Shown: positions 10,179 to 63,773 of the stretch, piece by piece | Numbering within the stretch: the first letter of the stretch is position 1 | How the letters are laid out: each line of letters starts with the position of its first letter | Assembly (NCBI GenBank): GCA_036522895.1 | Contig: DATDEX010000279.1 | Span: 5,793-69,792, forward strand | Length of the DNA: 64,000 nt | Direction of reading: 5' to 3' | DNA from: Candidatus Eiseniibacteriota bacterium | Lineage (GTDB): Bacteria; Eisenbacteria; RBG-16-71-46 | The notes under the pieces: generated by a model | Databases searched by the model: none | What the model was told of the DNA's origin: nothing | What the model saw: only the letters and a program-made list of their open reading frames with translations | Made by a program: the position numbers and the translations under genes

Positions 10179-10245
10179 TCGCGGGTGGGCGTGTGTCGGG
10201 GAGGCCGAGCGGCCTCCCCGACACTGTTGCAGCCGGTCGCTCGAT

Positions 10246-11511: not shown

Positions 11512-11837
11512 GGTTTCGCTCTCCTGTACGCATCGAACGCGGATGTAGTTCTTGGAGACGAGTTGACCCCGCGTGCGGCTAGCGACGCGGCGATGGAAGG
11601 GTAGGAGCGTGGGTTAGGCGAAGCAATGGCGGAATGCTGCGTTGTTCGTCTGCCCGCCGCTCGGGTTCGTGACGGGCAGCCCGGGTCGTCCACATTCGAG
11701 CGTCGGCGTGGAGACGGCTTGTGAGTTCCAACTCGGAGTGTCGCTCACAGACTCACGTGGCGGACGAGAACCTGGACCGCTACCGCGCCCGGTCGTTGCC
11801 CTACTGACTCGCTCACCCTGAGTTGATGCAACGTCAG

Positions 11838-41923: not shown

Positions 41924-42188
41924 GGGAGACCAACACCCCCTGGCATCGACGGCACCGTGCGCGCCCGCCGTGGGCTTGCGTTGCTCGCGCTCATGCGGGA
42001 GGCGCCGTGGAATGGCCGCGATACGCGTCGAGCCGATAGGCTTCGAGCGAAAGCGCGGCGGGATCGAACCGTCCGAGGATCGTCCCGAGGCATGCCTCGA
42101 CATCGGAGTCGTGGAGCGGCGGATGGTCCGGGCGCTTCACCCAGGTCGGGATCCCGGGGACGGACACCCAATATCGAGTAGCTTCTCG

Positions 42189-44252
42189 CTAGTGCTTGAC
42201 GCCTCGGCCCTGAGTGCGCATCACATCGAGCGCGCGCTTGGCGTTCGCATCTCCCTGCTGAGCCGCTTTGCGGTACCAGAGAACGGCTGTGGCGTCGTCC
42301 TTCGCCACGCCCGAGCCATGTTCGTACGCCAGGCCGAGGTTGTACTGGGCACTCGCGTATCCCTGTTCGGCCGCCTTTCGCCACCAGAGCACGGCTGTGG
42401 CGTCATCCTCCACGACGCCATTGCCATTGGCGTACATCGCGCCGAGGTTGTTCTGGGCCCTCGCGACTCCCTGCTCGGCCGCCTTGCGGAACCAGAGAAC
42501 GGCCGTGCCGTCGTCTTTCGCCACGCCACTGCCATTCGCGTACATCGAGCCGAGATTGGCCTGGGCGTCCGCGTCTCCTTGTTCAGCCGCCTTGCGGTAC
42601 CAGAGAACGGCTGTGGAGTCATCCTTCGCCACGCCCTTGCCATTGGCGTACATCACGCCGAGGTTGTGCTGGGCGTCCGCGTCCCCCTGTTCAGCCGCTT
42701 TGCGGAACCAGAGAACGGCTGTGGCGTCATTCTTCGCCACGCCACTGCCATTCGCGTACATCGAGCCGAGGTTGCACTGGGCGCCCGCCTCTCCTTGTTC
42801 AGCCGCCTTGCGGTACCAGAGAACGGCTGTGGAGTCGTCCTTCCGCGTGCCACTGCCATCTTCGTACATCATGCCGAGGCTCTACTGGGCGCTCGCGAAT
42901 CCCTGTTCAGCCGCCTTTCGGTACCAGAGAACGGCTTTGGCGTCATCCTTCGCCACGCCCCTGCCATTGACGTACATCAAGCCGAGGTTGCACTGGGCGC
43001 TCGCGTCTCCTTGTTCAGCCGCCTTTCGATACCAGAGAACGGCTGTGGAGTCATCTTCCGCCACGCCCTTGCCATTCGAGTACATCGAGCCGAGGTTGTC
43101 CTGGGCGTCCGCGGCCCCCTGTTCAGCCGCCTTGCGGTACCAGAGGACGGCTGTGGCGTCATCCTTGTCCACGCCCCTGCCAGTGGCGTACATCAGCCCG
43201 AGGTTGTACTGGGCGTCCGCGTCTCCCTGTTCAGCCGCCTTTCGCAACCAGAGAACGCCTGTGGCGTCATCCTTAGCCACGCCCCTGCCGTCCTGATACA
43301 TCAATCCGAGGTTGACTTGCGCGCCCGTAAATCCCTGTTCGGCCGCCTTTCGGAACCAGAGAGCGGCTGTGGCGTCATCCCTAGCCACGCCCATGCCATG
43401 TTCGTACATCACGCCGAGGTTGTGCTGGGCGCTCGCGAATCCCTGTTCAGCAGCCTTTCGGTACCAGAGAACGGCTGTGGCGTCATCCCTCGCAACGCCC
43501 CTGCCATGGGCGTAGATCACGCCGAGGTTGTACTGGGCCCTCGCGTCTCCCTGCTCGGCCGCCTTGCGGTACCAGAGAACGGCTGTGGCGTCATCCTTCG
43601 CCACACCCCTGCCATCGGCGTACATCACGCCGAGGTTGTACTGGGCGTCCGCGGCTCCCTGTTCAGCCGCCTTGCGGTACCAGAGAACGGCTGTGGCGTC
43701 ATCTTTCTCCACGCCCCTGCCATTGGCGTACATCAAGCCGAGGTTGTCCTGGGCAAGCGCAAGTCCCTGTTCGGTCGCCTTTCGGTACCAGAGAACGGCT
43801 GTGGCGTCATCCCTCGCCACGCCTCTGCCGTTGGCATACATCAAGCCGAGGTTGGACTGGGCGAGCGCAAATCCCTGTTCGGCCGCCTTTCGGTACCAGA
43901 GAACGGCAGTCGAGTCATCCTTCGCCACGCCCCTGCCATGGGCGTACATGATGCCCAGGTTGTACTGGGCCCTCGCGTCTCCCTGCTCGGCCGCCTTTCG
44001 CAACCAGACAGCGGCTGTGGCGTCATCTTTCTCCACGCCCCTGCCATCGCCGTACATCACGCCGAGGTTGTACTGGGCCTGCGCGTCCCCATGCTCGGCC
44101 AATGGGCGCAATAGCCGGAGTGCCGTAGAGTAGTCACCACGGTTCGCAGCGGCGACGCCGTCTTCCAGCGGTCCAGCGTTCGCGTTTCCGGATGTCAGCA
44201 AGAACAACAGAATGAAGGCGAGCAGACGCCTCATGCGGCCGAATGCAGGCAT
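42189..44252 (-). pseudogene. Sel1-like repeat (SLR) protein gene interrupted by a single in-frame TAG
   Basis: Two minus-strand ORFs (42882..44372 and 42189..42872) are in the same frame and are separated only by a TAG where every other repeat has TAC (Tyr of AQYNLG). Intact, it would encode about 19 Sel1 repeats (GxxYxxGxGVxKDxxxAxxWYRKAAEQG) after a signal peptide (MRRLLAFILLFLLTSGNANA). Confidence 0.6.
42192..44120 (-). repeat. tandem array of about 19 near-identical 108-bp coding repeats (Sel1 units)
   Basis: A 108-nt unit recurs ('...ggtaccagagaacggctgtggcgtcatccttcgccacgcc...ggcgtacatc...gccgaggttgtactgggc...'). Copies differ at only a few positions. Confidence 0.8.
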
Positions 44253-44671
44253 CGACGTTCCTCCTTGCTTAGGCCTCGTCTCTCTTTGCGGTGGCGCGAG
44301 CCGCCGAACCCTGACATTGTCGCATGAGAACATTGGCAGTGTCCCGTGACCTGCTCCCCAACTCGGAAACAAACGCAGTCAGCATCCTGTCGAGTTGAGT
44401 GCGAAGTGCGTTCCTGATGAGAGCGGCCCGGGATCGGCTTCGCAAGATGCGCGTGCAGCCCAGATCTCGTGCGACCGCGACTCCTAGGTCAAGGTTCCGG
44501 AGTGTGCCGCTCCTTCGATGGCGGCCTCACCCGGACGGCGGCCCCGAGGCAGCCAGCGGACCCTTACATCCCGGCCCTCACCGCCAGCGACACGCCACTG
44601 TTGGCCGGGACCAATGACGGCGGGGTGTTCCGTTCAAGCGATGGCGGCCTCAGATCGCCTGACCTCAGCGC

Positions 44672-50699: not shown

Positions 50700-51773
50700 T
50701 TGCCGATGCCTTCACCCGCACCCTCGACGTTCAAGCCGGTTTGGCTCATCCGAGCAGGGCTCCATGGCGAGGACGAGCACGACTCCTTGGCCTCGGGTCT
50801 AGGAATCATCGGGTTTCACAGCGTGCCCTCGCTCGAGGGCGTGAAAGGTGCGGACGAGGTACTGGCCAAGGTCGAACGGCAGAGCCCCGGGGACAAGGTC
50901 GCTCGCACACGGAACCGCGCCGCTCAACTTACCGCCTTCGTGCTCAAGATGGAGGTCGGTGACACCGTGGTCATGCCGCTCAAGTCCTCACGCTCCCAAA
51001 TCGCCTTTGGACGCATCGCGGGCCCGTACGCATACAAGAAGGTCGGTGATGCCCTCCGCCACGTTCGTCCGATTGAATGGGTGCGTCCCGACGTCCCTCG
51101 TTCCACATTGGCACAAGATCTTCTCTACTCGCTGGGCGCGTTCATGACGGTCTGCCAGGTCACCCGCAATGGCGCCGAGCGCCGGCTTGCCGCCGTGCTC
51201 CGGGGCGGCGTAGACCCGGGGCTGGGCGAGGGGCCCGACGCACACCGGTCTGAGCCGGTCGAGGAGGTCGGGGACGATCCCGCGTTGCTCAACGTCGCAG
51301 AGGCGGCAGAAGACCAAATCGTCTCGCGCATCCAAGCCAAGTTCCGTGAGCACGACCTTGCACGTCTGGTCGACGCCATTCTTCGAGCAGAGGACTACGA
51401 GACGGCCGTATCGCCTCCCGGGCCTGATGGTGGTGTCGATATCCTCGCCGGGCGTGGCGCCCTGGGTCTCGAGGGACAGCATCTCTGCGTGCAGGTGAAG
51501 TCTTCGATGGATCCTTCGGACGTGAAGGTTTTCCGTGAGCTGAAAGGAACCATGGATTCCTTCAAGGCGGACGTGGGCTTGCTCGTGTCGTGGGGCGGGT
51601 TCACTAGGGCGCTTCGACAGGAAGCGCGGCAGAGTTACTTCAAAGTGCGGCTGTGGGGGGCAGGCGAGCTATTGCAGGCGGTCTACCGGAACTACGACCG
51701 CTTGTCGGAGGAGATTCAAGCAGAGCTGCCGCTCAAGCGCGTGTGGGCACTGGTCGGGGAGGAGTTGGAGTAG
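50700..51773 (+). CDS. mrr: Mrr-like restriction endonuclease (Mrr_N + Mrr_cat, PD-(D/E)xK)
   Basis: 357 aa. The C-terminal block 'PGPDGGVDILAGRGALGLEGQHLCVQVKSS' is the Mrr catalytic-core signature (D...QxK). It lies first in the lower-GC island. Confidence 0.65.
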   Translation: MPMPSPAPSTFKPVWLIRAGLHGEDEHDSLASGLGIIGFHSVPSLEGVKGADEVLAKVERQSPGDKVARTRNRAAQLTAFVLKMEVGDTVVMPLKSSRSQIAFGRIAGPYAYKKVGDALRHVRPIEWVRPDVPRSTLAQDLLYSLGAFMTVCQVTRNGAERRLAAVLRGGVDPGLGEGPDAHRSEPVEEVGDDPALLNVAEAAEDQIVSRIQAKFREHDLARLVDAILRAEDYETAVSPPGPDGGVDILAGRGALGLEGQHLCVQVKSSMDPSDVKVFRELKGTMDSFKADVGLLVSWGGFTRALRQEARQSYFKVRLWGAGELLQAVYRNYDRLSEEIQAELPLKRVWALVGEELE

Positions 51774-51774
51774 C

Positions 51775-51921
51775 AAGGGCACGCCACGCGGCGGATGAGC
51801 GGTTGCTGGAGCCGAGCGGCGCGTTTGAGGCGCTGCAATAGATGCTCGGTCAGTCGTCCATCGTGAAGACTCAGCTCCACGCTTGGATCAGCGACGTCAT
51901 GGTGTGGCGAGAGGTGGAGTG
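51775..51921 (+). pseudogene. tyrosine-integrase 3' remnant
   Basis: '...GAFEALQ*MLGQSSIVKTQLHAWISDVMVWREVE' aligns to the intact integrase C-terminus 'AALQQMLGHSSIVTTQRCARISDDMVRRDVE'. It has an internal TAG and the catalytic position is lost. Confidence 0.4.
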
Positions 51922-52317
51922 ATTGGAGATGGGGGCGAGCTAGTTCCAGTCCGTTGCATGGGATCGGGGGGGCGTGGACTTCAAGATGGAGGGGGGACTC
52001 GTTCGGTGGCTGCTATGCCGAATCAATGTCACCGACGCGGGATCAGCTGGGCCCCGAGAAGCGGGTTCTGAGCTTCATGTTCTCGTTCGAGGAGCCGCTG
52101 AAACTCAAGACCTCGATTGATGACGCGGCGCTCGGGCTCGATCGCGTGAACGGGACTGGGGCAGGAGGGAAGCAGGCCGCCGTCAGGTTCAACATCCGTC
52201 TCGAGGACTTCCGGTTCCACTCCATGCAGGGGAAGCTGCTGGGCGGTACTGCCGGCAATCGCAGGAAGCCTCCCGAACCCGAAGAGGGTGAGTAAGGACC
52301 GCCAATCTGCAGCCAGC

Positions 52318-52416
52318 GTTGTAGCCAGTGCCCTCCGTCGAGCTTGCCCCCCCCGCAACTTCGTGTAAACACGCCGACGGAGAGGTGCGAGAGCGGGTGA
52401 ATCGGGCGGTCTCGAA
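52318..52416 (+). repeat. conserved ~100-bp module, copy 1 (downstream of integrase remnant)
   Basis: 'gttgtagccagtgccctccgtcg...cttcgtgtaaacacg...cGGAGAGGTGCGAGAGCGGGTGAATCGGGCGGTCTCGAA'. It is followed by hairpin 52488-52520 (gagccccatgggg/ccccgtggggctc). Confidence 0.6.
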
Positions 52417-52732
52417 GCGGGTCGCTAGCAGAAAACAATACCTTCGCAGCAGACCGTCGAAGGCATTGCGCACCAATAGAATCTCGAGAGCCCCATGGGG
52501 TTGCGACCCCGTGGGGCTCCCTGGCTTTCGGGCATGTACGGGCCGTGGCGGGCGGATTCGGGCGCTGAAACGGTAGCAATCCTGTAGCGGCAACCGGCCA
52601 AGGAATCAGCCGGTCTTGAAGCTGCCGGAGCCTATGGTCGACGAGCCACGTGCGCGGCGTCTGGGAGGATGCCGTTCGGGCCCAGCCATAAATACCTTGC
52701 AAGTACGGCGTAGGTACGCTATCTTTTGCGGC

Positions 52733-53287
52733 ATGACTAAGAAGCCAGTAGCTACGCAACGCGCCCTCCCGGCGAGGCTTGAGGAGCTTCGGGCGTGGGC
52801 TGGGGGAACTGAGCAGGAAATCAGCGAGCTGGTCGGCTCAATGGCGCCCCTTCAGGAACGACTCGAGGCGGCGCGTGAGCGGCTGGACCTCATCAGACGC
52901 CTGATCGGCTTGGCGGAACGAGATGCCTCAGGGCGCGCAGGGGAACAGCACCAGGTCGAGGGGCGCCGCCGAGACGCGAATCAGCCTGAAGTGGTCCTGT
53001 CGACGCCGCGGGCGGGGGGTGATGTGGAAGATCATATCGAGGGGATCCTCGAAGCCGCCGGCGAGCCGGTTCACATCCGCGATATCCGCCAAGCCCTGAT
53101 CGAGCGGGGGGTTCCACTGCCGGGGCGAGGCGACGAGGCAAATCTCATCGTACGCCTGCGCCGAGACGCAGGTCGCTTCACCCGCACAGGAAGAGGCAAG
53201 TACGCATTGTCAAAATGGGGATTGGCGGCTGTCGAACCGTCGAAGACACGAAGGGTAGTACGCAAGAAGAGCGGAGTCTCGAGATGA
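52733..53287 (+). CDS. HARE-HTH (winged-helix) domain protein with N-terminal coiled coil
   Basis: Start ATG 52733 (MTKKPVAT). The C-terminal block 'IEGILEAAGEPVHIRDIRQALIERGVPLPGRGDEANLIVRLRRDAGRFTRTGRGKYALSKWG' fits the HARE-HTH pattern found in restriction-system and RpoE-delta proteins. It is first in a 3-gene operon. Confidence 0.45.
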   Translation: MTKKPVATQRALPARLEELRAWAGGTEQEISELVGSMAPLQERLEAARERLDLIRRLIGLAERDASGRAGEQHQVEGRRRDANQPEVVLSTPRAGGDVEDHIEGILEAAGEPVHIRDIRQALIERGVPLPGRGDEANLIVRLRRDAGRFTRTGRGKYALSKWGLAAVEPSKTRRVVRKKSGVSR

Positions 53288-53886
53288 CGCCAGCTGAAGA
53301 GATCGCGAACTGGGAAATATTTCTATGGGTGCTACAAAGACTCGGGGGTTCGACTGGTCTGGTCGACGTCGAGACCGTATTTTACGACTGTTTCCAAGTG
53401 GCCCCGCAGCGATTCTCCTGGCGAACTCGAGCAGACCTGCCGGACTACAAGAAGTGCTCAAAGGCTCTCCGGGATGCAGAAGCCCGCAAGCCCAGGCTCC
53501 TCGTCAAGACTGGGGACAGTTTCAAGCGCCAGCTGACAGTGGAAGGGCAACAGTGGGTCGAGGCGAATCAGGGTCGCCTTCAGAGGCTGTTGGAGAGCGG
53601 TCGCGTCATTCAGGAGCCCAAGCATCGCCCGAGGGCACGCCACCTCGCTGAAGTGGAACGGAGCGCCGAGTTTCTGCAGTGGCAAACAGCGGGGGTCTTG
53701 CCGGATGAAAAATGGCGGGTCGCCGAGCTCCTTCTGTGTTCGCCCGACAGTGACCCAAGAATCTGGAGAGATCGCCTCGACGTGCTAAGGAGCGGCGCGT
53801 ATGCCGGCGGAAAGAGCGATGTCTTGAGGTTTCTCGAAGAGTTGGTCGAGGCACATCACACCTGGTTCGAGGGAGTTCGGGAATGA
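53284..53886 (+). CDS. hypothetical protein (operon partner, no recognisable domain)
   Basis: 200 aa from ATG 53284. It overlaps the upstream stop by 4 nt (ATGA) and the downstream start by 4 nt (ATGA). Confidence 0.4.
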   Translation: MTPAEEIANWEIFLWVLQRLGGSTGLVDVETVFYDCFQVAPQRFSWRTRADLPDYKKCSKALRDAEARKPRLLVKTGDSFKRQLTVEGQQWVEANQGRLQRLLESGRVIQEPKHRPRARHLAEVERSAEFLQWQTAGVLPDEKWRVAELLLCSPDSDPRIWRDRLDVLRSGAYAGGKSDVLRFLEELVEAHHTWFEGVRE

Positions 53887-56072
53887 AAGAGAAACGTGGC
53901 CAAGTCCACTATGGAGGGCGTGCATTTCACCAGGACGCCACCGAAGCCATGCGTGGCGACATCATCCGGGCCCTCATTGAAACAATAACGAACTCCGACG
54001 ATGCCTACGCAGACGCACACGGAAAGATTCGGGTTGAAGTCGAGCACCGGCGCGGCCCGTGGAGAGTTATCACGCGAGATCGCGCAAAGGGTATGCGCAG
54101 CGCCCGGATGGAGGAGGCGTTCGTTCATCTCGGCGGACGTACCTCTGGCTTTGAACGCGGCGAAAACGTGCGAGGCAATCTTGGCCGAGGGGCGAAGGAT
54201 CTCGCGGCTTTCGGAAACGTGGTCTTCGAGAGCATCTGTGAGAACAGGTATTCCAAGATGACGCTCGAGACCACTGGAGCCTACTGCCTAAGTCCAGAGA
54301 GAAGTGCGGTGGAAACGGATCGAGTTGGGCTCGGCATACCGAAGGGCAGCGGAACGGTCGTCACGATGAACGTGAGCCCTAACATTCGCTGCCCGCAGCA
54401 CGCCCGTCTCACAGAGAAGCTGAAGAAGCATTTTCAGCTTCGCGACATCCTCGCTGATTCGAGAAGAGAGGTTCAGCTTGTCGACTTAAATGACGACTCC
54501 TCTGTGACGCTTCATTCAGCGCACTCGGCCCTGCCCATCGTGTATTCGGACAAGCTCACAATCAAGGAATACCCCGAGGCTAGCGCCGTTGTCACAATCT
54601 GCCGCAATCCTGAGCGCTTTGACGAGCCCGCCTCTGATCCGTACCGACCAGGAGGGCTCTTGATCAAAGGACGCAGGGCGATTTACCAAAACACGTACTT
54701 TCGCTTCGAAAACAATCCGCATGCGGGCTGGTTCTCAGGCCGAGTCGAGTGTGTCTACATTGACAAGCTGGCAAGCGAATATGATGAGCGGCTGGAGTAT
54801 GGCTTGTCCCAAGATGAACGGAACCCAATACCGATTATCACAAGAAGGCGTGATGGGCTCCAAGAGACTCACCCATTCTTCAAATCGCTCGCAGCCGCGG
54901 TCGAGGGGCCCCTGGGAACGCTGATCGCTGAGGAAGAGCGCAAGTCTCGGGAGTCGGCGTCGCACGAAGGCACAAGAATGCGCCGAATGCTTGACACTCT
55001 GGGAAGGGACCTGGCGCGGCTCGTCGATGAGGATCTAAGGGAAATCGAGGAGGATGGCCTTGGCGGGGGACGAGATGGGGATGAGGGAGTTCCGGCAATC
55101 AGGTTGATTCCTGAACAAGCCGTGCTCTACATGGGCGAGAACAAGACGCTGACTGTCCAGGTTCGCGCGGACGTGGGGGCAGCGCGGGTAACGGCAGAGG
55201 TGGAACCCGGCGGGGTGGTGGAGCTCGTCGATGCTGAGGAGATACCACTATCCCCACACAGGCGAAGGCCGGGCGTTCTGAGCGGACAGGTGCATGTCCA
55301 GCCGCTATTGGAAGATGCTGAGACCCTTCTGACCGTCAAAGCGGCTGGTGTCTCCGCTGTCGCCTTGATTGAGGTGAGGCCGGAGAGGGAGGTGGTTGAG
55401 GTTCCGGTGGTGCCGCCCAAGTCCCTCCAGTTCGAGCGGGACAGTTGTCGCGTGACATGGACAAAGAAGAAGAGACTGCGCCTGATTGCGCCCGCAGAGG
55501 TTGTGGCAAGCGAGGGCAAAGAGGTGCAGGTCACGTCGTCCGATCCGGGTGTTGTAGTCATCAGACAACGCACGAGGCTTGAGCTCGATGAAGCAGTCGA
55601 GTACTACTGTGCCGAAGTAGCCGTGGAGGGGAGAACGCTCGGGGCGAAGGCGACCCTTCGAGCGGTCCTCAATGAGCTCGAGGCAACATGCAACGTTCTT
55701 GTCGCACGAGACGATGAGGGTCCCAACTTGATGATAAAGGTGGTCGACGAAGAGGCTGGCAACAATCGAGCAATCGTCGAGACCGATGGAAAAAGAACCG
55801 CAATCAAGATCATGGGCCGTCATCCAGCCCTGAAGCGGTACCGTGGCCCCGCACCCGACTTTCCTGGCGATGACCTCATCGCCACACAGTGCATGACCGC
55901 AGAGATAGTTGCCGGGGAGGCCGCGCGCATCGTTATGGAGCGCAAGTTCCCATTCGGGGCGGGTGCGGAGAATCTGGACGCGGCGCGGCTATACGTCGAG
56001 CATCACCGATACCTCACCAAATACCTTGCGCGGTGTCATCGAGCCCTGGTGCCCGACGCAAGCCTGAAGTAG
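53883..56072 (+). CDS. GHKL-superfamily ATPase (MORC/HSP90-like Bergerat fold) with long C-terminal extension
   Basis: 729 aa. The N-box 'IIRALIETITNSDDAYADA' matches E(L/I)IxN(A/S)xDA of MORC/HSP90/MutL. The G-box-like 'NLGRGAKDLAAFG' follows at the expected ~60-aa spacing. The C-terminal ~450 aa is unassigned (possible Ig-like beta domains). Confidence 0.5.
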   Translation: MKEKRGQVHYGGRAFHQDATEAMRGDIIRALIETITNSDDAYADAHGKIRVEVEHRRGPWRVITRDRAKGMRSARMEEAFVHLGGRTSGFERGENVRGNLGRGAKDLAAFGNVVFESICENRYSKMTLETTGAYCLSPERSAVETDRVGLGIPKGSGTVVTMNVSPNIRCPQHARLTEKLKKHFQLRDILADSRREVQLVDLNDDSSVTLHSAHSALPIVYSDKLTIKEYPEASAVVTICRNPERFDEPASDPYRPGGLLIKGRRAIYQNTYFRFENNPHAGWFSGRVECVYIDKLASEYDERLEYGLSQDERNPIPIITRRRDGLQETHPFFKSLAAAVEGPLGTLIAEEERKSRESASHEGTRMRRMLDTLGRDLARLVDEDLREIEEDGLGGGRDGDEGVPAIRLIPEQAVLYMGENKTLTVQVRADVGAARVTAEVEPGGVVELVDAEEIPLSPHRRRPGVLSGQVHVQPLLEDAETLLTVKAAGVSAVALIEVRPEREVVEVPVVPPKSLQFERDSCRVTWTKKKRLRLIAPAEVVASEGKEVQVTSSDPGVVVIRQRTRLELDEAVEYYCAEVAVEGRTLGAKATLRAVLNELEATCNVLVARDDEGPNLMIKVVDEEAGNNRAIVETDGKRTAIKIMGRHPALKRYRGPAPDFPGDDLIATQCMTAEIVAGEAARIVMERKFPFGAGAENLDAARLYVEHHRYLTKYLARCHRALVPDASLK

Positions 56073-56119
56073 TGCAACGTTCGCGGGTTATCGCAGCGGC
56101 CCCGAGAATGAGGCCACAT

Positions 56120-56252
56120 CGTGGCAAAACCAGTCATTGGTGTTAGCCCCCGGGTGCTCGTGTGGGCCCGCGAGAGATTCGGCGTCTCAATAGCCGACGT
56201 CGCCGAGACTGTGAAGACCGACCCGAGAGTTGTCTCGGATTGGGTGCTCTGA
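56120..56252 (+). pseudogene. 5' fragment of an HTH (ImmA/IrrE- or XRE-partner-like) gene truncated by IS insertion
   Basis: 'VAKPVIGVSPRVLVWARERFGVSIADVAETVKTDPRVVSDWV' resembles N-terminal HTH segments of ImmA/IrrE-family regulators. The reading frame ends at the IS3 left end. Confidence 0.25.
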
Positions 56253-57511
56253 CCCCTATTTCGTGAGACACCCGCTGACCGTTTCTGACGTCTGTTCGCG
56301 CCGGTATTCGAGCGGGCTCCGGTAGCCCAGCGCCGAGTGCGGCGCGTGTTGGTTGTAGTCCGTGATCCAGCCCGGGATCCGCTCCAGCACCCCCGCCGCC
56401 GAACTCCAGTCGGCCCCATCCGGGTGGTCCCGGCGCAGGGTGTTTTCGAGCGCCTCCGACATCACATTCGACTCTGGGCTCGCAACTGGAGTCGTGATCG
56501 GCGTCAGGCTCAGCTTCTCCGCCGCGATCACCGTTTCGAGCGAGGCGTAGATCCCTTCGTTGTCACCGAGGCATCGCACTGGCTCCGTCGGCTTCTCGTT
56601 CCCGAAGCGCGAGAACTCGGGCTGCCGTATCAGCCGGCGGTTGTCGGCGCCGTCGATCGGTCGGGCCTCCGCGACCACCGCGATCGCCTCCCGATCGCAA
56701 CAGTCGAGCGCGAACGCCAACTCGACGATCTCCCCGTTCCAGCACGCGATCGTCATCTTGTCGCTGCACCAGGCTGGTTCGAGCCCGGCATCGTCACCAC
56801 GCCACGATGCGGACGACCGTTCCGACGTCGCCGCCGCACGGCTAGGGCGAGCCCGGTCAGCCGCATCAGCCGCTGGATGCGCTTGCGGTTGTAGCCCGCC
56901 CCATATGCCCGATTGACCAGCACCGTGGCCCGCCGGTACCCGTAACTGCCCCGATCGCGCAGCACCGCCTTCAACTGGGCGTAGACTACGGCATCGTCAC
57001 GCCGATGGTAGCGTCGGGCGCGCGGTCCGCGCTCCCGCTACGCCGTCGCCCGGGCAATCCCGAGCACCCGGCTGATCCGTGCCAACGGCCGGCCGGTCAC
57101 CGCGCGGACACCCCGCAGAAGCGTGATATTTTTCTACCTCGTCACGCGCCGCGCGCAGGATCTCCGGGTCCACGGCCTTTTTCCCGATCAGACGCTCGAG
57201 CTCGCGGATCTTCTGCTGCGCCGCCCGCAGTTCGCTCGCCGGCACCACGTCCTCGTTGGCCGCGACCACGGTCTCGCCGCCCTGGGCGATATCAGGTGCT
57301 TCCGCCGCTGCAACAAGCTGCGCGAAATGCCAAGCTCCCGGCTCAACTCCGAGATCGTGACCTCGCCCCGCGCCAACCGGGCGACCTGCTCACGCTTGAA
57401 CTCCGGCGAGAACAACCGCCGCCCGTCCGAACCCCGTGGAACGCTCTCCATGACACCCTCCTCGGTACCCGGATGGTACCTCGTGAAGATGTCTCGCCGA
57501 ATCGGGGGTCA
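56252..57511 (-). mobile_element. IS3-family insertion sequence, degenerate (orfA/orfB fragmented)
   Basis: OrfA pieces 57451..57188 (RRLFSPEFKREQVARLARGEVTISELSRELGISRSLLQ) and 57269..56997 (ELRAAQQKIRELERLIGKKAVDPEIL). OrfB pieces 56974..56753 and 56756..56256 (rve core ...YNQHAPHSALGYRSPLEY). Imperfect terminal inverted repeats: left 'tgacccctatttcgtgagacaccc', right '...tgtctcgccgaatcgggggtca'. There are extra frameshifts beyond the programmed one. Confidence 0.6.
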
Positions 57512-57523
57512 GGGCAGGGTGTC

Positions 57524-57647
57524 GCTCTGGGCGTTGCAGCAGCTGCTCGGGCACTCCACCGGGGTCATGACGCAGCGCTACTCCCGACTCGGTGACGACG
57601 CAGTCCGCCTCGAGGCCGGGAGGGCCGTTTCAAGGGGCAGGTTGTAG
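57524..57647 (+). pseudogene. tyrosine-integrase 3' fragment (abuts IS3 right end)
   Basis: 'VSLWALQQLLGHSTGVMTQRYSRLGDDAVRLEAGR' matches an integrase C-terminus including the catalytic Tyr context (TQRY). The 5' portion is absent. Confidence 0.5.
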
Positions 57648-57754
57648 CAGAAGTTGTAGCAGCGCCCTCCGCGCGCGTTTGCGTGAACCCCATAAGTTCG
57701 TGTAAGAGCACGCGTGGAGAGGTGCGAGAGCGGTTGAATCGGGCGGTCTCGCAA
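57641..57754 (+). repeat. conserved ~100-bp module, copy 2
   Basis: 'gttgtagcagaagttgtagcagcgccctccgcgcg...gttcgtgtaagagcacg...tGGAGAGGTGCGAGAGCGGTTGAATCGGGCGGTCTCGCAA'. It is followed by hairpin 57824-57857. Confidence 0.6.
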
Positions 57755-57946
57755 TCACGAACGAATACAAACGATACAATTCCGATCTGCTACTAGATGG
57801 GGCGTCGCCAAGCGCTAAATGCAAGGGCCAGAGGGGGCTACAAACCCTTTCGGCCCTTTGCTATGGTGGGCGGTGGGAATCGCTGGGAGCAGGTTGGAGT
57901 GCGGATGCTGTAGCCGGATCTGTAGCCAACAAGGGTTTAGGCACGC

Positions 57947-59113
57947 TTGAACGGCGATGCACAGATGAACTCGTGGAGACATGCAATGGGTACGGTTTTC
58001 GGTCCGACGGTGTACATCCTTGGTGCCGGTGCTTCGGTGCACTCGGGCGCACCACTGCTGGGTGACTTCTTGGCGGCGTCAAGACATGTCTATCACTCCG
58101 GTACGCCAGAGACAGTTGCGCACTATCACGAGATGGCGGAGTTCTTCGGGCATCTCGACGGGATGCGGAGCGTCGCCTACTACGTCGATTCCGATTTTGA
58201 CAATCTGGAAGAGGTCTTCTCACTCTTGGAGATGGGGAAGCAACTGGGCGACAATCAGAGCGTCGATCAGATCGCGCGACTCAGGTGGTCAATCTACGAG
58301 ACCCTCGACGCGACGACGCGCGTCAGAATGAAAGAAGGCAAGCAGATTCCGGATTCCGTCTACATGGAGTTCGTAAACCAGTTCAAGAAGCTCAATGAAG
58401 AGCGTCGGACGCGGGCACGGACGCCAAGTTTGGGAACTGTCAGTGATACGATTGTGACCTTCAACTACGACGTCTTGCTCGACCACGCGCTTGAGGCGGG
58501 ACAGGTTCCGGTAACCTATGGACTATTGCCAGATCGGGAAGACGGCGTGCAACTGCTTAAGCTTCATGGGTCGCTGAACTGGGGTGTCTGCACGGACTGC
58601 AATGGGGCCCCTCAGATTGTGTCACCGAGTAGTGATGCGTGGATCGGGACGCCGAGACTCGACCCGTTACCCGGAGCGAACATTGAACTGCGGCTTGCAA
58701 CAAAGATCCTGCCCGGCACAAAGTGTCGGCAATGCGGGAGGACCGACAGGCTGGAGCCCGTCATGGTGCCTCCGACCTGGTCGAAGCTGATTGCCGGGTC
58801 GCCGTTGGTGCCGGTCTGGACGCACGCGGTGGAAGCTCTCAAGACGGCATATCAAGTCATTATTGTAGGTTACTCGATGCCGACGACGGATACGTTCCTT
58901 CGATATCTTTTTGCTCTAGGGCTCCGGGCGAATCCTTGGTTTAGCCGCGTTGTTGTCGTCAACCCTGACAAGTCGGCCGGCTTTCGCTCACGGTACGAGG
59001 CGGTCTTCGGCAGAGCGCTTGGCTCTCGCGGAAAGCTCATATTCGTGGATCAGGTGAACTTCGAGGACTTCGTTTCGAAGGGCGAAATGGGCAGGATAGG
59101 TCGAAACATGTAA
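57947..59113 (+). CDS. stand-alone SIR2-like (SIR2_2 family) domain protein with Zn-ribbon
   Basis: 388 aa with the motifs 'VYILGAGASV', 'TFNYDVLLDHAL' (catalytic Asn context), 'LKLHGSLNW' (catalytic His context) and 'VIIVGYSMPTTD'. A CxxC..CxxC pair (CTDCNG...CRQCG) is inserted in the domain. Confidence 0.65.
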   Translation: MNGDAQMNSWRHAMGTVFGPTVYILGAGASVHSGAPLLGDFLAASRHVYHSGTPETVAHYHEMAEFFGHLDGMRSVAYYVDSDFDNLEEVFSLLEMGKQLGDNQSVDQIARLRWSIYETLDATTRVRMKEGKQIPDSVYMEFVNQFKKLNEERRTRARTPSLGTVSDTIVTFNYDVLLDHALEAGQVPVTYGLLPDREDGVQLLKLHGSLNWGVCTDCNGAPQIVSPSSDAWIGTPRLDPLPGANIELRLATKILPGTKCRQCGRTDRLEPVMVPPTWSKLIAGSPLVPVWTHAVEALKTAYQVIIVGYSMPTTDTFLRYLFALGLRANPWFSRVVVVNPDKSAGFRSRYEAVFGRALGSRGKLIFVDQVNFEDFVSKGEMGRIGRNM

Positions 59114-59157: not shown

Positions 59158-59649
59158 CTAGGCCGACTTCCTCGAGTAAAGAACGCGTCCGTGTTTCGCG
59201 ACGAATGCTAGTGGAATCTTGGGGTTGTTGATGTCCTTCGCCCCGTCGCTGTGCCACTTCATCTCCCACTTGGTGTAGAAGGGTTCTAACTGTTCGGGGG
59301 AGACATGATAGACCGCCTCGAGCTCGATGCCATCGTAGACTGCGAAAACCCATGGCACCCGACGATACTTGGCTATGATCGTCGGGTTCATGTGGTGGTG
59401 CGTTGAGAAGCTGCGGGTCAGGTTGATGTTCACTGACTTCAGCTCGTACTCGACTCCGTCAGCATCCCGGGCGTCGTTGCCCTCGCGGCCGGGAATGCCA
59501 ACTAGCCCGGTGAGCAGAAGTACCTGAAGGATCTTGCCCCCGTTGTCCTGGAATACGTCTCCGATGCCATGCTTCGACGCAAGGGACTGAAAAGCCTGCA
59601 CGTAAGGCCAAAGGCGCTCTAGTTCCTTGAAGTCTGGATGCGGCTTCAA
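59158..59649 (-). CDS. type II restriction endonuclease, PvuII-like (PD-(D/E)xK)
   Basis: 163 aa. '[17 protein letters not shown]...[22 protein letters not shown]...STHHHMNP' corresponds closely, from memory of R.PvuII, to its catalytic D58/E68/K70 region and HHH motif. It lies next to a C protein and divergent from a beta-class methyltransferase, as in the pvuII operon. Confidence 0.7.
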
Positions 59650-59882
59650 CGCCCTGCACCCTCAAGCAACTCCCTTAGCGAGACGCGTAAGGCCCGGGCC
59701 AGACGCTCCATGTTGTCGATCGACACGTTTCGCTCAGCCCGTTCGACCGACCCCACGTAGGTGCGGTGGAGGCCCGCAAGCGCCGCTAAGTCCTCCTGGG
59801 AAAGCAAGCGGTCGTGGCGGATGCGCCGGAGGTTTGCTGCAAAGATTTCGCGTGCGCGGTGAGCGCGATCGTGGGCTACCAT
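59646..59882 (-). CDS. R-M controller (C) protein, XRE-family HTH (C.PvuII-like)
   Basis: 78 aa. '[48 protein letters not shown]' is a classic C-protein HTH. Its stop overlaps the endonuclease start (ATGA). Confidence 0.75.
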
Positions 59883-59914
59883 GGCGGCGACAATGTGACG
59901 TTGACGACTCTTGG

Positions 59915-59942
59915 TCTACAGACTATAAGTAGCGTTCCCTGA
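59915..59942 (-). promoter_or_regulatory. C-box-like operator palindromes upstream of the C gene
   Basis: GTCTACAGAC and GACTATAAGT(A) (GACT..AGTC-type half-sites) sit 35-60 bp upstream of the C gene start, in the divergent C/M intergenic region. Confidence 0.4.
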
Positions 59943-59953
59943 GGAGGAGCCCA

Positions 59954-60970
59954 TTGGCCATGCGCAGCAAGGAACGTGAGCGGAGGCGGCGAGAGCCCGC
60001 GTACTTCACCGAGCTAGGGCAGGCGTATAGCGGTGATTCAATCGAGTTGCTTACCGAGCTCCCTGACGACTCGGTCAATCTCGTACTTACGAGTCCGCCC
60101 TTTGCGCTGCAAAGAAAGAAGGCGTACGGAAACAAGGACCAGTCCGAGTACATCGACTGGTTGGTTGAGTTTGCCCGGGTTGTGCATACAAAGCTTCGCC
60201 CCGATGGGAGTTTTGTTCTGGATCTCGGTGGGGCATACCAGAAGGGAGTTCCAGCAAGAAGCCTTTACAACTTTCGGGTGCCAATTCGCTTGTGCGATGA
60301 GTTGGGCTTCTTTTTGGCCGAGGACTTCTATTGGTTCAACCCGTCAAAGCTCCCCAGCCCCATTGAGTGGGTGAACAAGCGGAAGATCCGCGCGAAGGAT
60401 TCAGTCAATAACGTGTGGTGGTTTGGGAAGACAGAGTGGCCTAAGGCGGACGTGTCTAGGGTGCTCACAGAGTACAGCGATCGGATGAAGAAGCTGATCG
60501 CCGATCCGTCAGGATTCTACACGCCAAAGAAGCGCCCCTCTGGGCACGACATCAGTGGCCAGTTTGGACGCGACAACGGCGGAGCAATCCCGTCCAATCT
60601 CTTGTCAATCCCTAACTCGGAGTCGAATGGGCGCTACTTGGAAGGTTGCCGTGTAATGTCAATCGCTGGGCACCCGGCGAGATTCCCGGCGAAGCTGCCG
60701 GAGTTCTTCATCAAGTTCTTGACGGATCCGAACGACCTGGTTGTCGACATCTTCGCTGGGTCGAACACAACTGGAGCAGTTGCGGAGGCGCTGGGCCGAA
60801 GGTGGATTAGCTACGACCTTTCCCTTGAGTATCTGGCGGCGTCGACCTTCAGGTTTGCGAGCTCTGGGACTTCTGTGGAGCAGATGCAAGTAGTCCACGA
60901 TCGTGTGCTCAAGGGGAAGTCCGTGAACCTCGATGTGCTCGATCACGCCCCCCGGCTCTCCCTGGGGTAG
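59954..60970 (+). CDS. beta-class N4/N6 amino DNA methyltransferase (M.PvuII-like)
   Basis: 338 aa. Motif IV SPPF (aa about 47) precedes motif I 'DIFAGSNTTG' near the C-terminus (beta permutation). Its size and divergent arrangement match pvuIIM. The called start is TTG at 59954, with an alternative ATG at 59960 and a GAGGAGG SD upstream. Confidence 0.8.
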   Translation: MAMRSKERERRRREPAYFTELGQAYSGDSIELLTELPDDSVNLVLTSPPFALQRKKAYGNKDQSEYIDWLVEFARVVHTKLRPDGSFVLDLGGAYQKGVPARSLYNFRVPIRLCDELGFFLAEDFYWFNPSKLPSPIEWVNKRKIRAKDSVNNVWWFGKTEWPKADVSRVLTEYSDRMKKLIADPSGFYTPKKRPSGHDISGQFGRDNGGAIPSNLLSIPNSESNGRYLEGCRVMSIAGHPARFPAKLPEFFIKFLTDPNDLVVDIFAGSNTTGAVAEALGRRWISYDLSLEYLAASTFRFASSGTSVEQMQVVHDRVLKGKSVNLDVLDHAPRLSLG

Positions 60971-61186: not shown

Positions 61187-62215
61187 ATGGGAAGCCAGGC
61201 CTACGGGATGCGGCTGTATCGGTACGGGATTGAGCTCAGGGGCGACGGGAGGAGAAGGGAACGGCTACCAGGCGGGCACGTCGTGATCGTTCGGCAAGAG
61301 GGCAAGTCGTCGTTCCGTGGGAAGATTCGGGCGTGGTCAGAGGCGAGCGCGAAGCGGCTCGCCCTCATTGCGGCCAACGCGGAACTGTTCTTCGGCTCTC
61401 ATGTCACGCTGACCTACCGCGCCGCCCAGGAGTCGTGGGAGACCGCAGGCGATCGGAATCGCCGATTCGTCCGGCGGTGCAAGGCGGACCTGCATAGGTT
61501 CCTGAGGGCCCTGCGAGCTGAGCTCGGGGAATATCTGTGGGTCCGGGAGTTCCAGGAGCGGGGAGTGGTCCACTACCACGTGCTGGCCCAGCATGAGGTA
61601 CCCGAAGCGAGGGCTGCGGAGGCCTGGGCGCGTGCGTCGGGGCAGTTCGGCGACGAGGCAGTATTGCGGCACGGCGTGAAGGTCGACGCGATCCAAAGTC
61701 AAAGGGGGGCGAGGCACTACCTGGGGAAGTACATCGGGAAGGAAAAGCAGAAGGGGTTGCCCGCGGGCGTTGATGGTGCGGGGCGCTGGTGGGGTCGGTC
61801 GCGAGGCCTTCGGTTGGCGCTGCTGGAAGACATCGTGTGGCTCGATCGAGGCGACATGTTCAGGCGTCCGGCCCAACTTCGAATCGTTCGGGGCCTGCGC
61901 GGATACATACAGCGTCGGTTCCGACGACGGTACCGAGGCGCCGCGTTCCTCGATTTCGGCGGCGCGCTGTCAGCGAAGTTGGTTGAGCTGGCGGCGCGGT
62001 TGCGCGAGTTCTACGGATGGAGTCCCAGCTTGGTCGAGCGACTGGAGAGGAGCGGTTGGGAAGTGATTCAGGAAGGGACTGAGGATGGACATGCAGCGGC
62101 TAGTGTCGAGGATCAAGCAGCATCAGTTGGAGAAGAGGCAGAAGGAGTTGGAGCGGAGACAGGAAGCGATGGCAGAGGCGCTCAGCAAGCGAAGCTCTGG
62201 CCCGCGACCCGATAA
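61187..62215 (+). CDS. HUH-superfamily replication initiator (Rep, AICE/pSAM2 RepSA-like)
   Basis: 342 aa with HUH motif 'GVVHYHVLAQ' and catalytic Tyr motif 'RHYLGKYIGK'. Confidence 0.6.
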   Translation: MGSQAYGMRLYRYGIELRGDGRRRERLPGGHVVIVRQEGKSSFRGKIRAWSEASAKRLALIAANAELFFGSHVTLTYRAAQESWETAGDRNRRFVRRCKADLHRFLRALRAELGEYLWVREFQERGVVHYHVLAQHEVPEARAAEAWARASGQFGDEAVLRHGVKVDAIQSQRGARHYLGKYIGKEKQKGLPAGVDGAGRWWGRSRGLRLALLEDIVWLDRGDMFRRPAQLRIVRGLRGYIQRRFRRRYRGAAFLDFGGALSAKLVELAARLREFYGWSPSLVERLERSGWEVIQEGTEDGHAAASVEDQAASVGEEAEGVGAETGSDGRGAQQAKLWPATR

Positions 62216-62375: not shown

Positions 62376-63357
62376 TGCCGAAACTGCCGAGGGGGATGTT
62401 TCTGAGGAAGGGGCGCGGGTACTACACGCGCCGCTGGACGGACGGGAATGATCGCTGGCTCGCGTTGGGCCCGGACTTCGACGAGGCGTGCCGCAAGCTT
62501 CGGAATGCCGAGCGAAGCGAGGTGCCGGTGGTCCGGCTCACCCTGAAAGAGGCGGCTGCCAAGTGGCTCGAAACCTACGTGGCCAAGAATCGGGCGCCTA
62601 AACAACGGGTGAAGGCCGCTCAACGGGTGCGTGACTACTTCGAGCCGTTCATGGGTTACAAGCTGCTCTCGCGGGTCGACAAAGAAGACCTGCGGGCGAT
62701 GCGCCTATGGTTGAAGAGGCAAGAGAAGAAGCCGCTTTCGGTGCGCCACATCCTGGCCGACGTGAAGTGCTTCTTCCGATGGTGCGAGGACGCGAGCTGG
62801 CTGGACCGGGCCCCGATCCAACACCGGTTGCTTCCCAAGTCGCAGGAGCGCCCGCCGGATCGTCTGGACGATGCCGATGTGGAGCGCCTGTTGTCGGTGC
62901 CGGAGCCTTACGCATTCATCGTGCGGCTGGCATTGGGAACCGGACTTCGCTGGGGCGAGCTCGCGAGGCTCAACAGCAACGACCTGGAAGTGGCGCGTTC
63001 CGAGGGGGAAGTACGCAGGGCATCCTCGTGGTGCGTCACACCAAGTCGTGGCGAGTTCGCAGGATTCCGTTGCAACGAGCGCTCTACGATGAACTGCGGA
63101 TGCGGGTCGGTCGGTTTCTGCCGATCATCAATCCGTTGGGCTTCGCTCGCATGGTGCGACGGTATTCAGGCGTCGCGACGTTCCACGCGCATCAGCTACG
63201 GCACACATTCGCGTGCCGCTGGCTGGAACGCGGCGGCGGCCTCGCGGCGCTGCAACAAATGCTCGGCCACTCGTCCATCGTGACGACGCAGCGCTGTGCG
63301 CGAATCAGCGACGACATGGTGCGGCGGGACGTGGAGAGGTTGGAGGCGGTGAGGTGA
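62375..63357 (+). pseudogene. tyrosine recombinase/integrase, frameshifted and with catalytic Tyr replaced by Cys
   Basis: The N-terminal frame (ORF 62276..63283 from MPKLPRG) carries the core-binding domain. The frame switches at a GGGGG run about 63004-63011 to ORF 62707..63357, which carries 'HQLRHTFACRWLERGGGLAALQQMLGHSSIVTTQRCARISDD'. The HxxR is present, but the expected catalytic Y reads C. Confidence 0.65.
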
Positions 63358-63617: not shown

Positions 63618-63710
63618 CCAGTGACCCTCCGCCGGGTTGCGCGACGCCGCTAACTCGTGTAACTACACCGGCGGAGAGGTGCGAGAGTGGTTGAATCGGG
63701 CGGTCTCGAA
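63611..63710 (+). repeat. conserved ~100-bp module, copy 3 (downstream of integrase)
   Basis: 'tctgtagccagtgaccctccgccg...ctcgtgtaactacacc...gcGGAGAGGTGCGAGAGTGGTTGAATCGGGCGGTCTCGAA'. Confidence 0.6.
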
Positions 63711-63773
63711 ACGGGAAGCGCCCATATTGCTAACGAACTCACGAAGACGTGTCGCCACTTGATATTACGCGAC

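Follow-up and report, generated by a model that had tools for sequence, protein, structure and literature searches.

Operon organization

The window analysed here is the whole 64,000-nucleotide (nt) stretch of contig DATDEX010000279.1 from a Candidatus Eiseniibacteriota bacterium. It carries an operon of three genes, which encode a HARE-HTH winged-helix protein (gene 1), a protein predicted to contain a second winged helix (gene 2) and a GHKL-type ATPase (gene 3). The operon is a self-contained, horizontally mobile module carried as accessory cargo on integrative elements, and its reading in a first-pass annotation as a three-gene operon in a defence-island context is supported by the analysis reported below. 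All positions are coordinates in the window, and related loci are designated by running numbers (Lnnn).

Genes 1 to 3 are intact and co-directional according to the list of open reading frames (ORFs) and the raw sequence, and the operon measures approximately 3.3 kb in total. The ATGA overlaps described in the first-pass annotation at 53284-53287 and 53883-53886 were seen in both the ORFs and the sequence. A 4-nt overlap is also the commonest junction state across related loci, where junctions are nearly always within 12 nt. It joins gene 1 to gene 2 in 10 of 16 loci and gene 2 to gene 3 in 9 of the 31 scorable loci, in all of which the latter junction lay between -29 and +27 nt. Because this coupling is kept across related loci, the gene order is not due to chance. 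A scan of the operon for sigma-70 promoters and terminators gave counts no higher than in shuffled sequence.

The ATPase encoded by gene 3

Gene 3 carries motifs I-IV of the GHKL superfamily, and structure comparison gives it the Bergerat fold. Conservation was assessed in 22 sequences of a wide range (26-69% identity), plus 26 close sequences. The N-box E33-T-I-T-N37-S-D39-D40 conforms to the pattern ExxxNxxD, with E33, N37, D39 and D40 invariant in both sets. The remaining motifs were followed in the 22 wide-range sequences: motif II (D66-R-A68-K-G70) is a DxAxG variant of DxGxG with D66, A68 and G70 invariant, the lid of motif III (R97-G98...R102-G103-A104-K105-D106...G111) is likewise invariant, and in motif IV G157 is invariant and T158 is present in 17 sequences. 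Both motifs quoted in the first-pass annotation, IETITNSDDAYADA (amino acids (aa) 32-45) and GRGAKDLAAFG (aa 101-111), are present. The ATPase is under strong purifying selection at every nucleotide-binding motif.

A second domain of S5 fold, with a conserved basic residue that it would supply to the ATP site, is the mark of the GHL branch and is present in gene 3. G258, R323-x-G325 and H330-P331 of this domain are invariant in the 22 sequences. Basic residues of the S5/transducer domain in characterised enzymes are those of the GyrB QTK loop and MutL K307, and by analogy with these R323 is likely to be the phosphate-sensing basic residue. As judged from its sequence, gene 3 encodes an active ATPase of the gyrase/Hsp90/MutL/MORC branch.

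The C-terminal region of about 450 aa, listed at first as uncharacterised, resolves in the AlphaFold2 model (made from 26 homologues; predicted local distance difference test (pLDDT) 80) into the S5 domain, a coiled-coil hairpin, Ig-like domains and a helical bundle, modelled at aa 648-722. This bundle is a candidate constitutive dimerisation domain. R629, H647 and E674 of the C-terminal region are invariant in the 22 sequences. A Cys2His2 zinc site (C290/H330/C718/H719) joining the S5 domain to the C-terminal helix was considered and rejected, C290, C718 and H719 not being conserved in distant members.

Regarding relatives of known structure, Foldseek returned the two-domain GHKL+transducer fold, with MORC2 giving the best template modelling (TM) score and root-mean-square deviation. 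At the sequence level, a profile of the gene 3 family found no MORC and no other GHKL protein among the PDB sequences at E up to 10, and phmmer with the single gene 3 protein found no relative there. The match to Pfam HATPase_c_3 is borderline (24.4 bits; gathering threshold (GA) 25), and nothing was found in NCBIfam, PADLOC or PHROGs. The initial assignment as a MORC/HSP90-type GHKL ATPase therefore stands as regards the GHKL+S5 fold, but the likeness to MORC holds at the level of fold and not of family membership. The first-pass annotation had also allowed for an ordinary histidine kinase or an HtpG fragment; no HisKA/DHp phospho-acceptor domain was found N-terminal to the ATPase domain, and neither the middle and C-terminal domains of Hsp90 nor similarity to HSP90 families was detected.

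No nuclease, helicase or methylase domain was found in genes 1-3 with Pfam, PADLOC, NCBIfam and relaxed sub-region scans, and no toxin domain was recognisable in the three proteins. Isolated sub-regions of the three proteins had no significant match in relaxed Pfam scans.

The winged-helix proteins encoded by genes 1 and 2

Gene 2 had been described as lacking any motif that could be placed. This holds for family searches, in which Pfam, NCBIfam, PADLOC and PHROGs gave no match, but the predicted structure (pLDDT 88) consists of a winged helix and a C-terminal helical bundle. By structure comparison the winged helix resembles TubR, MarR and F-93. The residues N9, L17, E30, W46, G88, L150 and C152 are invariant in a wide alignment and, from their identity, do not look catalytic. 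With 156 homologues found, gene 2 represents a new family with a predicted winged helix and helical bundle.

The description of gene 1 as a coiled coil followed by a HARE-HTH winged helix is borne out by the family alignment, which displays an N-terminal heptad-like helix, the winged-helix motif PGRGDEANIIVRLRR...RF.RT.RG.YAL and a basic tail, and by Pfam matches. The window copy itself matches HARE-HTH (PF05066) below threshold (E 4e-3, 17.8-19.9 bits, GA 25.9). The domain is matched by 12 of 18 members of the gene 1 family (best E 1.7e-7), and a precomputed PF05066 match exists for several database homologues; on this family-level evidence gene 1 contains a HARE-HTH domain. A total of 121 homologues with lengths of 155-187 aa was found, many of them on contigs which also carry gene 2 and gene 3 matches.

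The coiled coil + HARE-HTH family occupies the gene 1 position in about 20 loci. In two mycobacterial loci the slot holds a 190-aa Mrr_N protein, and in L004 and L005 (5762-7405) it holds a 547-aa DndB (DGQHR/ParB-like) protein fused to the same HARE-HTH C-terminus, whose gene overlaps gene 2 by 4 nt. From this modularity and the constant adjacency of gene 2 and gene 3 it follows that the gene 1 position is an exchangeable DNA-reader slot and that gene 2 and gene 3 form the invariant core. In L004 and L005 a convergent AAA_16/AAA_22 ATPase gene was also observed downstream.

The HARE-HTH domain also occurs in the eukaryotic protein ASXL. It is a proposed reader of modified DNA (PMC10853773, PMC3417536), and HARE-HTH, Mrr_N and DndB are otherwise found on modification-dependent restriction enzymes and in Dnd-type systems (PMC10853773, PMC3417536, PMC11037411). 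The type IV restriction endonucleases with fused HARE-HTH or Mrr_N share their reader domains with the gene 1 slot; the enzymes combine reader and nuclease in one fused protein, whereas the gene 1 reader stands alone as a coiled-coil protein and is coupled to an ATPase.

Family size, distribution and synteny

Gene 3 has more than 380 close homologues of approximately 725 aa. An exhaustive scan of 1.84 billion representatives clustered at 50% identity gave 1499 matches at E <=1e-3 and 699 at E <=1e-30, and the family would on these sequence matches comprise about 700 clusters at 50% identity. Among the 150 best matches most are 700-780 aa long and align end-to-end; shorter matches appear to be fragments. 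A motif-seeded scan of one genome per GTDB species yielded at least 45 loci among 185,579 species genomes, distributed over Actinomycetota (including Mycobacterium and Mycolicibacterium), Chloroflexota, Acidobacteriota, Planctomycetota, several proteobacterial classes and WOR-3. Copies from several different phyla are near-equal in their identity to that of the window (approximately 60%), which indicates lateral transfer.

Synteny of the genes, a check proposed in the first-pass annotation, was found with family hidden Markov models (HMMs): gene 3 is directly preceded by a gene 2 homologue in each of the full-length bacterial loci, which span at least six phyla and include gene 3 identities as low as 26-28%. 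The pairwise distances of gene 2 and gene 3 are correlated (Mantel r 0.865; reached by 0 of 2000 permutations), and the two genes co-evolve.

Several groups of more distant relatives were also seen. The distant clade L026, L027, L029 and L030 (27-29% gene 3 identity) has an extra gene of 575-619 aa which starts at the gene 3 stop or a few nt from it (approximately 10151-12010) and which in three of the four loci contains a Sigma70_r4-like HTH; upstream, L026, L029 and L030 carry variable and less tightly linked GIY-YIG-like (MUG113/T5orf172), UvrD or HNH_2 genes. Possibly this clade is a variant of four genes that includes an explicit nuclease or helicase. In Dehalococcoidia (L037-L046 and L048) a shorter gene 3-like subfamily of approximately 504 aa is about 30% identical over the ATPase module, and no gene 2 was found at any of the 11 loci. 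The copy in L038 (7902-9416), the sole one of these loci with scanned flanks, stands alone among housekeeping genes (two SDRs, PGA_cap, MFS). The subfamily is possibly a domesticated, vertically inherited paralogue.

Three IMG/VR contigs of uncultivated virus genomes, classed as viral (L057, L061 and L066; 92, 388 and 129 kb), carry divergent gene 2-gene 3 pairs in which the gene 2-like ORF directly precedes the gene 3-like one, and no gene 1-family protein was detected on them. Seven further IMG/VR contigs labelled as giant-virus metagenome-assembled genomes (MAGs) (L058, L059, L060 and L062-L065; 19-33% GC) carry stand-alone gene 3 relatives of 569-903 aa; their giant-virus origin is putative, as given by the contig label, and bin contamination is possible. 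The full-length ORFs (L058-L060, L062-L064) match the family HMM with E 1e-33 to 1e-57, and L065 holds only fragments of 89-122 aa (E 4e-19 and 2e-9). L058-L060 and L062 match the GHKL+S5 module and the conserved C-terminal segment, L063 and L064 only the N-terminal module. ATPase motifs such as ELITNSDDAY, RGFFSRGAKDISALG and DPSRISGLNxDHPF are kept in these relatives, none of which has a gene 2 partner.

Genomic context

The position of the operon between an Mrr-like nuclease and a PvuII-like restriction-modification (R-M)/SIR2 block, as given in the first-pass annotation, was confirmed by Pfam and PADLOC matches to the neighbours. The segment has a GC content of 57-65%, compared with approximately 70% in the flank at 46-50 kb, in agreement with the lower-GC segment described before. 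It was also said to be bounded by integrase remnants, and an integrase 3' remnant indeed precedes each of three direct copies of an attachment site (att)-like repeat of approximately 91 nt (core GGAGAGGTGCGAGAGCGGnTGAATCGGGCGGTCTCG; starts at 52331, 57668 and 63625). Each copy begins just after its remnant, and the repeats of the integrase ends were designated family D2. From this arrangement it follows that the "defence island" is made up of three decayed integrative islets in tandem. The first, islet A, contains the Mrr-like gene. Genes 1-3 lie in islet B (52421-57758) together with an HTH fragment and an insertion sequence (IS) of the IS3 family, and islet C contains SIR2, the PvuII R-M system, Rep, Xis and an integrase with a frameshift. 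The middle islet has the operon as practically its only cargo, parallel to recognised defence cargo in both sister islets. The features are summarized in Table 1.

Table 1. Positions of the operon, its protein domains and the surrounding features in the window
Feature	Position	Strand	Remarks
Gene 1	52733..53287	+	ATG 52733, stop 53287; 184 aa
Gene 1 domains			coiled-coil-like helix ~aa 10-60; variable linker; HARE-HTH aa 97-162; basic tail
Gene 2	53284..53886	+	ATG 53284, stop 53886; 200 aa
Gene 2 domains (predicted)			winged helix aa 9-84; long connecting helix; helical bundle aa 115-195
Gene 3	53883..56072	+	ATG 53883, stop 56072; 729 aa
Gene 3, GHKL (Bergerat-fold) ATP-binding domain	53883..54377	+	aa 1-165
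Gene 3, S5/transducer-like alpha/beta domain	54399..54872	+	aa 173-330; invariant R323-x-G325 loop, H330-P331
Gene 3, coiled-coil hairpin	54873..55052	+	aa 331-390; long helices 331-357 and 364-390 in the AlphaFold2 model
Gene 3, Ig-like beta-sandwich domains	55089..55817	+	aa ~403-645
Gene 3, C-terminal helical bundle	55824..56072	+	aa 648-729; invariant E674, with R629 and H647 just upstream
Mrr_cat protein	50700-51773		PADLOC candidate PDC-S02, E 2e-126
att-like direct repeat, copy 1	52331..52421	+	left boundary of operon islet; family D1
43-aa N-terminal fragment of unrelated HTH-like gene	56121..56252	+	ended by the IS
IS3-family element	56250..57511	-	HTH_Tnp_1, HTH_21 and rve_3 matches; imperfect terminal inverted repeats
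Tyrosine integrase 3' remnant of operon islet	57512..57647	+	ORF translation ...LLGHSTGVMTQRYSRL...
att-like direct repeat, copy 2	57668..57758	+	right boundary of operon islet; family D1
SIR2_2 protein	57947-59113
PvuII restriction endonuclease, C protein, N4/N6 methyltransferase	59158-60970
Rep-like protein	61187-62215
att-like direct repeat, copy 3	63625-63715		family D1

The att-like repeat resembles the 5' half of a tRNA; no intact tRNA was found in the window. Positions 51800-51928 and 63217-63345 were listed along with the three copies.

A fourth gene cut by an IS3 insertion had been proposed downstream of gene 3. The 43-aa fragment exists, but it is only weakly HTH-like, matching PF24410 wHTH-HSP90_Na-assoc (E 0.019) and HTH_3 (E 0.043), and it ends in a stop codon formed by the last three nucleotides, TGA, of the IS3-family element. 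The flanks of the IS differ, with an HTH N-terminus on one side and an integrase C-terminus on the other, which implies an IS-associated deletion instead of a simple insertion. The ends of the element are TGACCCCTATTTCGTGAGACA and TGACCCCCGATTCGGCGAGACA (reverse complement); its orfB appears split into an HTH_21 piece of 73 aa and an rve_3 piece of 166 aa, and the element may be decayed. The fragment was rejected as a component of the system because downstream genes differ between loci: unrelated membrane-type proteins are encoded in L001 and L003, and DUF3644, DUF4917, a hydrolase or genes on the opposite strand are found elsewhere. L051 and L056 were considered as copies of the island free of the IS and rejected; their genes 1 and 2 are 100% identical to those of the window, but they represent the same island with the same IS.

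Two side observations concern other parts of the window. A single-copy, sub-threshold match to Rfam CRISPR-DR20 at 61338-61374, inside the Rep-like gene, is probably due to chance (26.7 bits versus a gathering threshold of 42; E 0.055). At 41970-44372 a 496-aa Sel1-repeat ORF on the minus strand overlaps over its whole length with a repetitive plus-strand ORF of 714 aa, which is a typical artefact of repeat-rich, high-GC sequence.

Related loci also lie in mobile surroundings. The operon of L003, from Mycolicibacterium acapulense, occupies the distal end of a small element that resembles a prophage or satellite and has integrase, capsid and protease genes; L001 has a capsid gene and a serine recombinase nearby, and L053 adjoins genes of a type IV secretion system/integrative and conjugative element (ICE) and a KAP NTPase. 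In L054 the operon lies between an integrase, a relaxase and a SACS/NOV_C gene on one side and DUF4917 and TIR-TPR genes on the other. The 1405-aa sacsin-like (SACS) + NOV_C protein of L054 (2989-7206) is encoded approximately 1.7 kb upstream of the operon, with the relaxase gene between them, and is a candidate for a second, different GHKL-type conflict protein in the same island. The 121 ORFs flanking 30 loci include GmrSD (2), Eco57I-type and other methyltransferases, NERD (2), HEC-06, DUF3427, rve and IstB, and no helicase, methylase or nuclease is recurrent among them. These contexts fit an operon that is mobile accessory cargo and often lands in defence neighbourhoods.

Comparison with known systems

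As the first-pass annotation had surmised, the trio corresponds to no named system in the sources searched. None of the families of PADLOC-DB 2.0.0 (2023; including Shedu, Mza, mads, PDC and HEC) matched genes 1-3 at E up to 0.01 in a scan that did match the neighbours in the window to PDC-S02, SIR2, REase_II and MTase_II. None of the three proteins is named in NCBIfam 20.0 (June 2026), and PHROGs gave nothing for the trio. No description of the operon was found in the searchable literature, in which subscription journals are thinly covered, so that prior naming is possible; it is not described in the papers on CapK/CapS, GHKL-Shedu, the reappraisal of Dnd and the diversity of BREX.

In its GHKL+S5 fold gene 3 is closest to MORC (MORC2, MORC3) and SMCHD1, with no detectable sequence-level relationship. 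The S5 signature of MORC, GhXhhpXXRhl, is only approximated in gene 3; the nearest stretch, G258-L-L-I-K-G-R-R265-A-I-Y, has a G258-to-R265 spacing of 7 instead of 8. Of the 22 sequences, 8, for the most part distant members, have another residue in place of R265. Eukaryotic MORC and SMCHD1 proteins have CW, SMC-hinge and chromatin-reader domains, whereas gene 3 lacks these and has Ig-like domains and a helical bundle instead, and its operon also encodes two winged-helix proteins as separate genes. Gene 3 is not a member of the MORC family, though by analogy it is likely to work most like MORC and SMCHD1.

The operon belongs within the broad radiation of GHKL-S5 ATPases in R-M-like systems (PMC2292703, PMC3417536). 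Prokaryotic MORC and paraMORC1-5 have been placed with nucleases in such systems (Iyer, Abhiman and Aravind 2008, PMC2292703), and they share with gene 3 the GHKL+S5 module with intact motifs, sporadic lateral spread, R-M or defence neighbourhoods and family-specific C-terminal extensions. The MORC/paraMORC systems have operonic SFII helicases, methylases and Vsr, REase or HNH nucleases, or fused REase, TIR or HxH domains (PMC2292703). These defining partners are not conserved here; the invariant partner is the 200-aa winged-helix protein, together with a HARE-HTH reader. (Note that the operon is set apart from paraMORC1-5 by the published descriptions of partner genes and not by sequence.)

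Among systems in which a GHKL ATPase takes part in phage defence, as is the candidate role here, are VcSduA (GHKL-Shedu), Mza and SLFN-pAgo-GHKL, with VcSduA as the experimental precedent (PMC12137116). VcSduA is a fusion of GHKL to a DUF4263 PD-(D/E)xK nuclease, whereas no nuclease is detectable here; in SLFN-pAgo, GHKL is fused to Argonaute, which is not present in this operon. CapK/CapS also pairs a GHKL protein with a DNA binder of the winged-helix type, the two being encoded together and next to immune genes (PMC13373217). CapK is an HTH-STAS-GHKL anti-sigma-type kinase and CapS a STAS-wHTH protein, both upstream of a conserved immune operon (PMC13373217), whereas the operon described here has an S5 domain, lacks STAS and has no conserved downstream operon. 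STAS gave no match at E up to 5 in sub-regions of genes 1 and 2 and in aa 301-729 of gene 3, or at E up to 0.01 in the full-length proteins.

Proposed function and alternative explanations

The operon may encode a DNA-targeting conflict system (anti-phage or anti-mobile-element) centred on a clamp ATPase, a reading whose probability is put at about even. In its favour are the intact and coupled operon, the constant adjacency and co-evolution of gene 2 and gene 3, the exchange of reader modules in the gene 1 slot, the invariant ATPase motifs, the lack of any nuclease, helicase or methylase domain, the mobile-element and defence-gene surroundings, the gene 2-gene 3 pairs on IMG/VR contigs and the signs of lateral transfer. 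The clamp ATPase appears to be the sole enzymatic activity of the module, paired with DNA readers, and ATP-gated clamping or silencing is proposed because no nuclease is detectable in the trio. Characterised gyrase, Hsp90, MutL and MORC enzymes are dimers that are held together constitutively at the C-terminus and whose N-terminal ATPase domains close on ATP, and MORCs use ATP-driven closure to trap and compact DNA. A dimer-clamp sequence is proposed because these enzymes act as dimers. In this sequence the gene 1 protein, dimeric via its coiled coil, would bind target DNA and may discriminate a base modification; the gene 2 protein would bridge gene 1 and DNA to gene 3 in a presumed complex. 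The N-terminal domains of gene 3 would then dimerise on ATP while the C-terminal bundle holds a constitutive dimer, giving an ATP-gated clamp on DNA. Such a clamp would trap or compact the DNA and block replication or transcription of the invader, with no requirement for cleavage.

Several points weigh against this reading. The protective role is inferred from context, and, no effector domain being recognisable in the trio, the killing or blocking step is conjectural throughout. Many housekeeping genes occur among the 121 flanking ORFs, whose defence genes are given as plain counts. The predicted TM-score of 0.50 for the gene 3 model leaves the inter-domain arrangement uncertain. The likeness to MORC is one of fold only, and the Foldseek E-values do not separate MORC from Hsp90 or GyrB. 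Searches with tblastn found no copies in 72,556 PLSDB plasmids or 50,697 GenBank phage genomes.

A restriction-like system would differ from the ATP-gated clamp in relying on cleavage, either by an unrecognised nuclease in the C-terminus of gene 3 (R629, H647, E674) or by a separately encoded nuclease fed by the trio as sensor and motor, a part that has been proposed for MORC and paraMORC in R-M systems. Prokaryotic GHKL-S5 ATPases have been placed with nucleases and paraMORC5 has its unassigned C-terminal domain (PMC2292703), in the distant clade gene 2 is closely preceded by GIY-YIG-like (MUG113/T5orf172), HNH_2 or UvrD genes, and the three residues are invariant across the family and kept in the giant-virus MAG relatives. 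However, the isolated C-terminal regions matched no nuclease family at E up to 5, the neighbouring nuclease genes show no conservation, are missing at most loci and are separated from gene 2 by 100-200 nt, and the Mrr-like gene of the window sits in a different att-bounded islet; the explanation is considered unlikely. A service to the mobile element itself, by gene silencing or timing, control of replication or partition, or exclusion of competing elements, is also thought rather improbable. The operon is always on or beside integrative, conjugative or prophage-like elements, the winged helix of gene 2 resembles those of partition and regulatory winged helix-turn-helix proteins (TubR, MarR, F-93), and a toxin or nuclease is absent, all of which would suit such a role. 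The elements are nevertheless of unrelated types (tyrosine-integrase islet, serine-recombinase prophage, ICE and integrative mobilizable element), the operon takes an accessory-cargo position rather than a place next to genes for replication or partition, no mobile-element genes were seen within 8 kb in L005, and an exchange between HARE-HTH, Mrr_N and DndB readers is what restriction-type systems typically show.

There is little probability that the operon is a stress-responsive regulator like CapK/CapS, in which the GHKL enzyme would modify a winged-helix repressor and so switch on neighbouring immune genes. The precedent (PMC13373217) and the co-encoding of a GHKL protein with two winged-helix proteins beside defence genes speak for it, but STAS domains are lacking, the 729-aa gene 3 product is a GHKL+S5 clamp-type ATPase and not an anti-sigma-type kinase, and the genes downstream lack conservation and frequently lie on the other strand. 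The view that gene 3 encodes a GHKL protein of ordinary housekeeping function, whether histidine kinase, HtpG/Hsp90 chaperone or MutL-type repair factor, could draw on the weak Pfam matches to the generic HATPase_c and HATPase_c_3 models. It is effectively refuted by a family profile that finds no PDB GHKL protein at E below 10, by the sporadic, lateral distribution (at least 45 of 185,579 species genomes by motif scan) and by the location of the operon in low-GC mobile islets.

Within the reading as a DNA-targeting conflict system, a more specific proposal is nuclease-free silencing, in which winged-helix readers would load a MORC-like clamp on foreign or modified DNA for entrapment or compaction. 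This proposal is put forward tentatively, its probability being low.

Implications

Prokaryotic GHKL+S5 (MORC-like) ATPases were reportedly predicted in 2008 to be ancestors of the eukaryotic MORC chromatin silencers. To our knowledge, almost none of them has been studied, and the systems predicted in 2008 all include nucleases, helicases or methylases. The operon is one of many unvalidated candidate systems, and the module is invisible to PADLOC 2.0.0, to NCBIfam and, except for the borderline HATPase_c_3 match, to Pfam. Nuclease-free silencing, if true, would make it a prokaryotic functional counterpart of MORC/SMCHD1-type genome defence, and the stand-alone relatives in giant-virus MAGs mark a possible route of such ATPases into eukaryotes. 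If the module protects cells, it would provide a tractable bacterial model for the MORC mechanism and an added family for defence-system catalogues, and it would tell whether bacteria can make invading DNA harmless through ATP-driven entrapment or silencing rather than through cleavage.

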